Source of the DNA: a phage
Assembly: GCA_014750165.1 (NCBI GenBank)
Contig: GCA_014750165.1_4319.1
Strand: one strand, 5' to 3'
DNA: 45,917 nt
Part shown: in pieces, positions 7,483 to 34,535 of the stretch
Numbering within the stretch: position 1 is the stretch's first letter
Layout of the letters: each line of letters opens with the position of its first letter
Position numbers and translations under genes: made by a program
Notes under the pieces: model-generated
What the model saw: only the letters and a program-made list of their open reading frames with translations
Told to the model about the DNA's origin: nothing
The model's database searches: none

Positions 7483-7968
7483 ATGAACTGGAATGAAATT
7501 TTCGAATACAGAGATGGCAAGATTTATTGGAAAGTTAGCCCTGGCAGGAGGGCTAAGGTTGGTTCGGAAGCTGGATCAAATCAAATAAAAGGGTATAGAT
7601 TTGTGAAATTTCACGGAGTTTTATATATGACACACAGGGTTATTTGGGAGATGCATAACTGTGAAATACCGCATGGAATGGAGGTTGACCATTTAAATCA
7701 CATTAGGGACGATAACAGGATAGAGAATTTAAGAGTTGTTACAAAGTCAATTAATCAGAGGAATGCATCTAAAAGAATTGATAATAAAAGCGGTTTTACA
7801 GGCGTTTCTTGGTATCCCAAATATTCAAAGTGGAATGCTTACGCGACAGTAAATTCCAAGAGGTTTAATCTTGGTTACTTTGAATCAAAGCAAGATGCCT
7901 ATGTGGCTGTTAAAAAATTTAGGTCCATAAATGATTTTCATAAAAACCATGGAGTTGATTTATGTTAA
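7483..7968 (+). CDS. HNH homing endonuclease
   Basis: MNWNEIFEYRDGKIYWK...; HNH core EVDHLNHIRDDNRIENLR; ATG 7483 after GGAGA; paralogous to 27993..28485 and 34044..34535. Confidence 0.8.
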   Translation: MNWNEIFEYRDGKIYWKVSPGRRAKVGSEAGSNQIKGYRFVKFHGVLYMTHRVIWEMHNCEIPHGMEVDHLNHIRDDNRIENLRVVTKSINQRNASKRIDNKSGFTGVSWYPKYSKWNAYATVNSKRFNLGYFESKQDAYVAVKKFRSINDFHKNHGVDLC

Positions 7969-26783: not shown

Positions 26784-27920
26784 ATGGCAACTGCAAAAAT
26801 CACTAACGAAGAGCTGCGTGAAGAGCTTGCTAATGGCATGACAAACAAGGCAATCGCAGAGAAATACGGAATGAACATTCGCAACGTTGAATTGCGTCGT
26901 AGTAAATTGGCAAAGAGTGGAGAATTGCACGGAAACCCAGGTATCAAGAAGTTAGTTCCTGACGGTTATATGGTTAAGGGAACCTCCACGATGATTGATG
27001 CGGATGGTAACGAGAAGCTGCGCTGGGTTAAAACCTCTGTAGACAATGAGCGACTTGAGGTTTTAATGGAGCAAGCTCGAGAAGCATTTTGCTCTGATTT
27101 GCCAAAGGCTATTCCATCTGAATCACCGAATGTTAACTTTGATGATAACACGCTTGCGATGTATCCAGTTTTTGATTTACACATTGGGGCGATGGCTCAC
27201 AAACATGAGTGTGGCGAAAACTATGATACAGCAACAGCAGAGAAAGTAATGAATGGGTTCTTTGACTACGCTGTTGATAAGGCTCCAAACTCTAAGAATG
27301 CTGTATTGGTATTGGGTGGTGATTTCCTGCATTACGACTCTCTGGAGGCTAAAACCCCGGCATCAGGTCATATCTTAGATTCTGACAGTCGTTACGCCAA
27401 GATTGTTTATGTTGCAATCCGGTCAGTGCGTCGTGCCATTTCTCGAATGATGGAAAAGCACCAAGTTATTGAAATTAAAGTAATAAGTGGCAATCACGAC
27501 GAGGCAGGAATGGTTTGGCTCCGCGCTGCACTTGCTGCATTTTATGAAGATGAGCCTCGCGTAAATGTTGATGTTAGCCCAGCCGCAATGATGATGACCA
27601 GCTTTGGAACGACGCTTATTGGATACACTCACGGGCACCAAATGCGGAAAGCCGATACTCGACTAACTGTTATGGCAACTGATTTTCGTAAGTTATTTGG
27701 CCAAAGTGAGTATGTTTACACACATAGTGGCCACTGGCATTCGCAGAAGATTACAGAAACAAACTTGGGAATTGATGAGGTTCATGGGCAGCTTGGAAGC
27801 CCTGACGCGTACTCCGCAAATGGCGGTTGGCGTTCTCAACGTCAAGCGGCAGTCATTGTCTACCATAAAGAATTCGGTGAAGTTGGCCGATTCATTTGTC
27901 GCCCTAAAATGTTTGGCTAA
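26784..27920 (+). CDS. HTH-fused calcineurin-like metallophosphoesterase
   Basis: N-terminal HTH-like TNKAIAEKYGMNIRNVELRRSKL; MPP motifs D-x-H (FDLHIG), GDxxD (GGDFLHYD), GNHDE, THGH, GHWH. Confidence 0.65.
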   Translation: MATAKITNEELREELANGMTNKAIAEKYGMNIRNVELRRSKLAKSGELHGNPGIKKLVPDGYMVKGTSTMIDADGNEKLRWVKTSVDNERLEVLMEQAREAFCSDLPKAIPSESPNVNFDDNTLAMYPVFDLHIGAMAHKHECGENYDTATAEKVMNGFFDYAVDKAPNSKNAVLVLGGDFLHYDSLEAKTPASGHILDSDSRYAKIVYVAIRSVRRAISRMMEKHQVIEIKVISGNHDEAGMVWLRAALAAFYEDEPRVNVDVSPAAMMMTSFGTTLIGYTHGHQMRKADTRLTVMATDFRKLFGQSEYVYTHSGHWHSQKITETNLGIDEVHGQLGSPDAYSANGGWRSQRQAAVIVYHKEFGEVGRFICRPKMFG

Positions 27921-27940
27921 TAGCGCTTTTTGTTAAAACG
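27919..27940 (+). promoter_or_regulatory. gene-boundary palindrome cassette, variant
   Basis: AATAGCGCTTTTTGTTAAAACG then ATACCCGC..GCGGGTAT hairpin, ATCGAAACGG. Confidence 0.4.
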
Positions 27941-27992
27941 ATACCCGCGAAAGCGGGTATTATTGTTTTATCGAAACGGCAGGGGGATTGAA

Positions 27993-28485
27993 ATGAATTG
28001 GCATGATTTTTTTATACTATAAGGATGGAAAGGTTTTCTGGAGAGATCCGCACTGCACGAGATTGAAGCCAGGTGATGAGGCTGGTAGTAGGCACCATAG
28101 GGGTTATTGGTATATTCGTAGATATGACAAAACAATGTCAAGGCACCGAATCGTATGGGAGATGCACAACGGAACAATACCAGACGGTATGGAGATAGAT
28201 CATATAAATCACGTGCCTGGTGATGACAGAATTGAAAACCTAAGAATGGTCACAAGAAGGCAAAACAATCAAAACAAAAAATTAAATGAAAGAAATACAA
28301 GCGGACACGTCGGGGTTAGCTGGAACAAGAAGACAAACAAATGGAGAGCAATGATAGGCATAAGGGGAGAGGACGGAAAGAGGAAAACTTTATACGTTTA
28401 TTATGGTGATTCTTTCGATGATGCGGTATCAGCAAGAAAGAAAGCAGAGGCTGAGCACTCGTTTCATGAAAATCACGGTAAATAG
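27993..28485 (+). CDS. HNH homing endonuclease, interrupted by frameshift at T7 tract
   Basis: ATG 27993 with strong RBS (AGGGGGA) encodes MNWHDFF then stops; HNH body (track 28003..28485) is in +1 frame; an 8th T would restore MNWHDFFLYYKDGKVFW, matching the paralog N-terminus MNWNEIFEYRDGKIYWK. Confidence 0.7.
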
Positions 28486-28501
28486 CACTTTTTGCCTAAC
28501 T
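28481..28501 (+). promoter_or_regulatory. gene-boundary palindrome cassette, variant
   Basis: AAATAGCACTTTTTGCCTAAC then ATGCCG..CGGCAT hairpin and ATCGAAACGA. Confidence 0.4.
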
Positions 28502-34043: not shown

Positions 34044-34535
34044 CTACCTCATTCCGCTGTTCTTGTGGTATTTCGCATTAACCTCAGCAACAATCCTCGC
34101 CTCGCAAGCACAGATAAAGTCTATGAATGTTCCTAAACATACAATTTTCCCATCTATGCTAATTCTTGCCGACCACTTACCTCTAACATCCATGTTCACA
34201 CCAGTTACCCCTGGCTTTCTTCTTACATACCTTTTGAGATTCTTATGATTTTCCATGTGGCTAACTAGCCTTAAGTTTTCAATCCTATTATCAGACCTAT
34301 CTCCATTAATGTGGTCGATCTGCATTCCTTTTGGTATATCTCCGTTGTGAATAATCCAGACCGCTCGATGGCAATAAATTAGCTTATTCTTAACCCTAAA
34401 TGCCTTGTATCCATGGCTATGCATGCAGCCAGCCTCGTCACCAACTTTTACTTGGGATGAGTTATACTTTCTGTAAAGTTTCCCATCCTTATACTCTACG
34501 GCGTTTACAATATCCTCAACTAGAATGGCACACAT
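34044..34535 (-). CDS. HNH homing endonuclease
   Basis: HNH core QIDHINGDRSDNRIENLR; paralog of 7483 and 27993 genes. Confidence 0.8.
   Translation of the reverse strand: MCAILVEDIVNAVEYKDGKLYRKYNSSQVKVGDEAGCMHSHGYKAFRVKNKLIYCHRAVWIIHNGDIPKGMQIDHINGDRSDNRIENLRLVSHMENHKNLKRYVRRKPGVTGVNMDVRGKWSARISIDGKIVCLGTFIDFICACEARIVAEVNAKYHKNSGMR

Follow-up and report, generated by a model that had tools for sequence, protein, structure and literature searches.

The HNH endonuclease I-HmuI of Bacillus phage SPO1 (PDB 1u3e) is encoded within a group I intron and carries DNA-binding modules at its C-terminus. HNH_3/AP2 proteins are also encoded by Drexlerviridae, as ACG-M12 gp17 (YP_006987880) and AHP42 gp46 (YP_009056562), and the AP2/ERF domains of AtERF1 (1gcc/2gcc), TEM1 (7et4) and WRI1 (7wq5) belong to transcription factors. 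The gene examined here lies in a stretch of phage DNA of 45,917 nucleotides that was analysed over its full length (the window). It is a putative homing endonuclease gene, free-standing and intergenic, whose product would combine an I-HmuI-like HNH nuclease domain with an AP2-type DNA-binding domain in the place of the C-terminal modules of I-HmuI. The two proteins have no phmmer sequence match (a phmmer search against the PDB sequences gave nothing significant), their relation being at the level of the fold only, and the copy in the window carries a frameshift at codon 6/7. Unlike the domains of the plant factors, the AP2-like domain in the window is fused to a nuclease and scores below the Pfam threshold. 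The ACG-M12 and AHP42 genes are orthologues at the same locus, between the exonuclease and the next gene, with approximately 80–90% DNA identity and a common hairpin, Shine-Dalgarno (SD) sequence and start codon, but they are intact (163–164 aa) with the run TTTTCTT, whereas the window has seven uninterrupted T (T7) and an ORF of nine codons.

A/T runs at the junction of two reading frames, as in the window, are known from IS elements (A9/T9), Shigella mxiE, Thermus dnaX and Citrobacter tssM, and in the window, as in those slippage systems, the loss of a single U from the RNA would join the frames. In these systems the runs are 8–11 nt long and conserved among homologues (PMC1088944, PMC4256274), whereas the run in the window is 7 nt long, is found in one genome and appears to come from an in-frame run of six T (T6). 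Slippage of Escherichia coli RNA polymerase (RNAP) was undetectable below T7, and rescue of GFP through U insertion amounted to ~5% at T7 and 10% at T8; for rescue through U deletion, which is what this gene would need, a figure (~10%) is given for T8 only, and ~0.75% of transcripts had an insertion at a T7 run (PMC6260861). The runs that bacteria use for expression are typically of 9 nt and sometimes of 8 (PMC1088944).

With the frame repaired in silico to T6, the protein matched Pfam HNH_3 (PF13392) over residues 51–93 with 73.3 bits (cut-off 24.8), and AP2 with 21.4 bits, which is below the gathering threshold of 33.3. Residues D69, H70 and N94 were invariant and N82 was at least 90% conserved in 58 homologues, and the ORF in the window keeps all of them (EIDH...ENLR...QNNQN). 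In an AlphaFold model of an intact orthologue (pLDDT 92; mean of 96 for residues 1–10) a short turn is followed by a beta-hairpin at 7–16, and N-terminal residues 1–10 are predicted to be ordered. The modelled fold resembles that of a solved HNH homing endonuclease, and the AP2-like part, a three-stranded sheet and a helix, superposes on solved AP2/ERF domains.

The window represents the whole genome, assembled as a circle of 45,917 bp, of a T1/Rtp-like siphophage (Drexlerviridae); its nearest GenBank genomes share only ~86–87% identity over ~70% of a 25-kb segment. The genome came from a run whose NCBI assembly bears the label E. coli, where a virulent T1-like phage in the library of an isolate would reflect contamination or a carrier state. 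A tRNA-Arg(tct) gene at 38659–38736 is also found in Veterinaerplatzvirus 12210I. Phage 12210I has a 242-aa ‘head morphogenesis’ gene between portal and protease; it has no tblastn match in the window, in which an unmatched 143-aa ORF (41172–41603) is located between the large terminase and the portal, and portal and protease overlap directly (42906–42913). Three HNH_3 paralogues, 38–43% identical to one another, are present in this 46-kb genome, two of them elsewhere than at the locus under study:

7483–7968, plus strand: paralogue HNH-1, intact, 161 aa, beginning MNWNEIFEYRDGKIYWK, 43% identical to the repaired HNH protein
34044–34535, minus strand: paralogue HNH-3, intact, 163 aa, 43% identical to the repaired HNH protein

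The tail genes on either side of HNH-1 are direct neighbours in phage 12210I. Each of the three paralogues is found where genes of 12210I adjoin, suggesting three independent insertions of homing endonuclease genes.

The features at the start of the interrupted HNH gene are as follows:

27981–27987, plus strand: Shine-Dalgarno sequence AGGGGGA, duplex dG of −9.4 kcal/mol with the 16S 3' end
27993–28022, plus strand: ancestral start and truncated nine-codon ORF (MNWHDFFIL, then stop); 54 of 58 homologues start at this Met column
28007–28013, plus strand: T7 homopolymer, by comparison with relatives a putative derived insertion of one T in an ancestral T6 (codons 6–7, GAT TTT TTA)
28003–28485, plus strand: body of the HNH_3 and AP2-like ORF, open and undamaged, annotated by NCBI as HAN9010003.1 (160 aa)

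A count of the letters in the window confirmed exactly seven T at 28007–28013, as a first, sequence-only reading of the locus had it, and the strong ribosome-binding site which that reading placed ahead of ATG 27993 is also there, with a spacing of 5 nt. The frame from ATG 27993 was said to stop after MNWHDFF; the truncation is real, but it comes after nine codons rather than seven, at TAA 28020–28022, and no intact frame runs from the conserved start. The HNH body does lie in the +1 frame, which is open from 27997 (its upstream stop being a TGA that overlaps the start codon ATG 27993) to TAG 28483–28485 and contains an in-frame ATG at 28003, giving 160 codons. Both frames are open over 27997–28019, and the T7 run is inside this overlap. 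ATG 28003 lies 15 nt from AGGGGGA, the sole SD there, and has no SD-like pairing 3–10 nt upstream (dG no better than −3.6).

When the gene was rebuilt in silico with 5 to 9 T, only T6 and T9 were in frame. T6 gives an open protein of 163 aa, MNWHDFLYYKDGKVFW (its start also given as MNWHDFLYYKDGKVFWRDPH), T8 gives MNWHDFFYTIRMER and so on with many stops, and T9 gives MNWHDFFLYYKDG and so on, in frame and one residue too long. Relative to an open frame the window thus has a surplus of one T or a deficit of two, not a deficit of one. It had been proposed that an eighth T restores the conserved N-terminus and that the resulting peptide is colinear with the paralogue MNWNEIFEYRDGKIYWK; the paralogue is indeed present at 7483–7968, but the peptide given was that of T9, which needs a one-residue insertion, whereas the T6 protein aligns without a gap both to this paralogue and to the relatives of the gene. 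T6 also reproduces the N-terminal spacing of the family exactly. Deletion of A28014 restores the frame equally well (MNWHDFFYYKDG); as the ancestral difference it was rejected as less parsimonious, the nearest relatives reading T6 followed by ATAC.

Comparison with related phages gives the direction of the change. The closest GenBank relatives at the locus are the Guelphvirus phages ACG-M12, SCS31 and ECH1 (~90% nucleotide identity) and AHP42 (78%), all four with an annotated intact HNH endonuclease of 163–164 aa from the same ATG. A protein search recovered a still closer orthologue (P0001), which has 163 aa and is 96% identical to the T6-repaired protein; its contig, Logan SRR20950931_50370, shares 98% nucleotide identity with the window over ~580 nt, and the sole length difference within the gene is GATTTTTTATAC (T6) in that contig vs GATTTTTTTATAC in the window. 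Contig SRR17221335_195449 also has T6, and five other relatives have interrupted runs (TTTCTT, TTTTCTT or TTTTCTC), all in frame; the run was read in the DNA of P0001, P0003, P0005 and the GenBank phages. The 160-aa product of the window falls in a 90%-identity cluster of 78 members, and among the 15 members listed 12 have 163 aa, begin with MNWNDFL and represent at least 30 contigs, the other three being the product of the window (the sole one of 160 aa), a protein of 107 aa and one of 165 aa that begins with MMNWNDFL. Another T7 allele could exist among the members beyond these 15 of 78. The same Met column is the start in 54 of the 58 aligned homologues, in which W3 (44/58, otherwise mostly L or F), Y9 (56/58) and G12 (58/58) are conserved. 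Since T6 is found in the nearest relative, all other orthologues retrieved keep the frame and the Met is shared by 54 of 58 homologues, we infer that T7 is a derived insertion of one T into T6, so far unique to this genome. The indel had previously been given the reverse direction. The view that the frameshift severed an ancestral start, served by the ribosome-binding site, from the HNH body is borne out by the intact orthologue, and chance does not account for the likeness between the short ORF and the family N-terminus, because the DNA here has 98% identity with that orthologue and this T is the only length difference in the gene.

The window and its nearest relative differ at nine synonymous and six non-synonymous positions, and the rest of the ORF is free of stops; the absence of decay in the remaining ORF, together with the retained catalytic residues, suggests that the frameshift is recent. 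Exact-context DNA scans that allowed a variable T-run gave no match in IMG/VR (later one, unrelated), none in the JGI metagenomes and four chance matches in unrelated taxa among the GTDB genomes; no further close relative came from any of them. A megablast search with the locus found nothing in complete E. coli genomes or plasmids, and an exact look-up of the 160-aa product returned no record in the contig index. Copies of the family with a frameshift were seen at two of 44 IMG/VR loci with distant homologues (L042 and L044). At L042 there is an apparent loss of one base at ~1692, where homologues encode IP-DGMEIDH and where there is no long homopolymer, and L044 is frameshifted at ~1806–1823. 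Such copies are what ordinary decay of homing endonuclease genes may produce.

The gene is part of a cassette located between the exonuclease and PNK/phosphatase genes, with the following parts:

27919–27932, plus strand: left 14-nt direct repeat AATAGCGCTTTTTG, overlapping the exonuclease stop (TAA 27918–20) and forming the left cassette junction
27933–28494, plus strand: free-standing HNH cassette of 562 bp (hairpin, SD, ORF and right repeat), found in some related phages and lacking in others
27940–27971, plus strand: terminator-like hairpin GATACCCGCGAAAGCGGGTATT followed by ATTGTTTTAT, just 5' of the HNH ribosome-binding site
28481–28494, plus strand: right 14-nt direct repeat AATAGCACTTTTTG, overlapping the HNH stop (TAG 28483–85)

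ACG-M12, SCS31, ECH1, AHP42 and SRR20950931 carry the cassette, and Rtp, PCEc3, 12210I and SRR33937406_84437 are without it at the same junction; in the phages that lack the HNH gene the exonuclease stop is followed by a single AATAGCACTTTTTG and then by the leader of the next gene. This distribution points to a mobile cassette, and the direct repeat AATAGCRCTTTTTG may mark a homing target or a recombination junction. Because several relatives lack the cassette, the HNH gene is clearly dispensable. The hairpin is conserved in AHP42, whose annotation lists it as a rho-independent terminator, as well as in phages of the ACG-M12 type and the SRR20950931 contig; with the hairpin directly upstream of the HNH ribosome-binding site, expression of the gene would need read-through or an unrecognized promoter.

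Taken together, we regard it as probable that a genuine and recent T6-to-T7 insertion has turned this HNH-AP2 homing endonuclease gene, which the phage does not need, into a hypomorph or a null. Replication slippage would have added one T to the T6 of codons 6–7 very recently. Ribosomes drawn by the sole SD would start at ATG 27993 and halt after nine codons, and the output of nuclease would drop sharply, which would mark the onset of the decay that homing endonuclease genes usually undergo. ATG 28003, which lacks an SD, might still yield some protein of 160 aa without MNWxD, either because ribosomes initiate there directly, though weakly, or because they re-initiate there after terminating 17 nt downstream of this ATG. 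Slippage of the host RNAP would correct a few percent of the transcripts to U6 at most, such correction being possible but low because T7 is the shortest run with detectable slippage of the E. coli enzyme, and, as a third route, ribosomes could slip by +1 on the U-run, which the rare codon AUA follows. The sequence-only reading had offered sequencing error, recent inactivation and slippage as three options; the list was right, but they do not stand level, as a second assembly also has T7 and no relative has the frameshift.

Homopolymer indels are a classic sequencing error, the T7 allele is known from a single sample and the remaining ORF is undamaged, as would be expected of a sound gene, so the phage might truly be T6 and a systematic homopolymer miscall might have been inherited by both assemblers. 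We consider such a read-level error quite unlikely. The NCBI record is a TPA assembly (product HAN9010003.1, ‘HNH endonuclease [Escherichia coli]’, on a contig of 45,917 bp), and exact look-up of two flanking proteins led to a Logan contig, SRR4953928_212, of 45,947 bp whose two ends repeat the same 30 bases (circular at k=31), so that 45,947 − 30 = 45,917. The ends of this contig are 100% identical to the window over 7,246 nt, T7 included. Both assemblies probably derive from one sequencing run, but two independent pipelines agree on T7, without a contig break or a bubble at this point, which makes an assembler artefact unlikely. A chemistry prone to indels should have left several breaks, whereas the 55 of 65 annotated 12210I proteins that match the window (45 over the whole protein, ten partially or diverged) each do so in a single frame, and no gene is broken at the other nine A7/T7 runs or at the 33 six-nt A/T runs of the window. 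The assembly is not indel-prone. We take the run, SRR4953928, to be Illumina, as TPA pathogen assemblies at NCBI usually are, and seven nucleotides is a short run for a consensus-level miscall on that platform; a literature search for the run accession found no paper. The gene might also still work as annotated, in a reading that overlaps with the preferred one, if ATG 28003, which was overlooked at first and which the insertion brings into frame, served as the start of a 160-aa protein (MIFLYYKDG...) with the first six residues replaced by MIF. This is exactly the NCBI product HAN9010003.1; it is only three residues shorter and keeps the hydrophobic F6/L7 as well as Y9 and G12, and re-initiation is conceivable with TAA 28020–22 just 17 nt away. 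If useful, active protein were made in this way the mutation would be nearly neutral and not inactivating. We hold this to be unlikely, as the only SD is placed optimally for ATG 27993 and none lies 3–10 nt from ATG 28003, of 58 aligned homologues not one uses this column as its start, the lost residues include W3 (44/58) and D5, both conserved and in a part predicted to be ordered, and the site would be occluded by ribosomes elongating from ATG 27993.

Expression that depends on slippage, with T7 as a throttle that is passed when RNAP leaves out one U or when the ribosome slips by +1 on UUU UUU ahead of AUA, seems very improbable to us. T7 is the minimum run at which slippage of the E. coli RNAP was detected (PMC6260861), and rescue of indels by slippage has been documented elsewhere (PMC1088944). 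A slippery homopolymer, of a length at the lower limit of detection for RNAP, is present where both frames are open (27997–28019), and the frame-0 codon that follows is AUA, the least used Ile codon of the phage (8.9 per 1000); just upstream of the run there is no SD-like sequence. The reported efficiency at T7 is low, however (~5% or less), expression in bacteria typically uses at least 8–9 nt, and RNA folding around T7 revealed no significant structure (z = −1.65; 14 of 200 shuffles fold as well). A −1 slip on U UUU UUU leads to the wrong frame, the HNH frame being reached by +1 or −2 only, and was discarded. Evolved recoding sites are conserved, but every orthologue retrieved is in frame, the 98%-identical relative with T6 included, and programmed recoding is unsupported since no relative has the frameshift. 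It would be a similarly remote prospect that the T7 allele is a selected or exploited throttle, in which the ribosome-binding site feeds a nine-codon decoy, rare slippage or re-initiation at ATG 28003 yields the nuclease and T6/T7 acts as an on/off switch; if this were true, a potentially toxic homing endonuclease would be held at trace level, with T6/T7 flips within phage populations.

Few spontaneous mutations are as common as the gain or loss of one base in a short homopolymer, and a free-standing homing endonuclease gene that has ceased to be useful can be expected to degenerate. This kind of feature is already known, and the biological weight of a one-base homopolymer indel in a homing endonuclease gene expected to decay is small. 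The public annotation of 160 aa from ATG 28003, a start that the insertion itself put in frame, probably does not give the ancestral start of the gene, and a frameshift flag would suit the locus better, with the frame restored by removing a T and not by adding one. T6 and T7 form a natural pair with distinct diagnostic N-terminal peptides, which are predicted to be MNWHDFLYYK for a U deletion by RNAP or an early +1 slip on the first UUU, MNWHDFFYYK for a +1 slip at AUA, MNWHDFFLYYK for a −2 slip and MIFLYYK for a start at ATG 28003, and the pair could be used to follow background slippage and re-initiation in phage.
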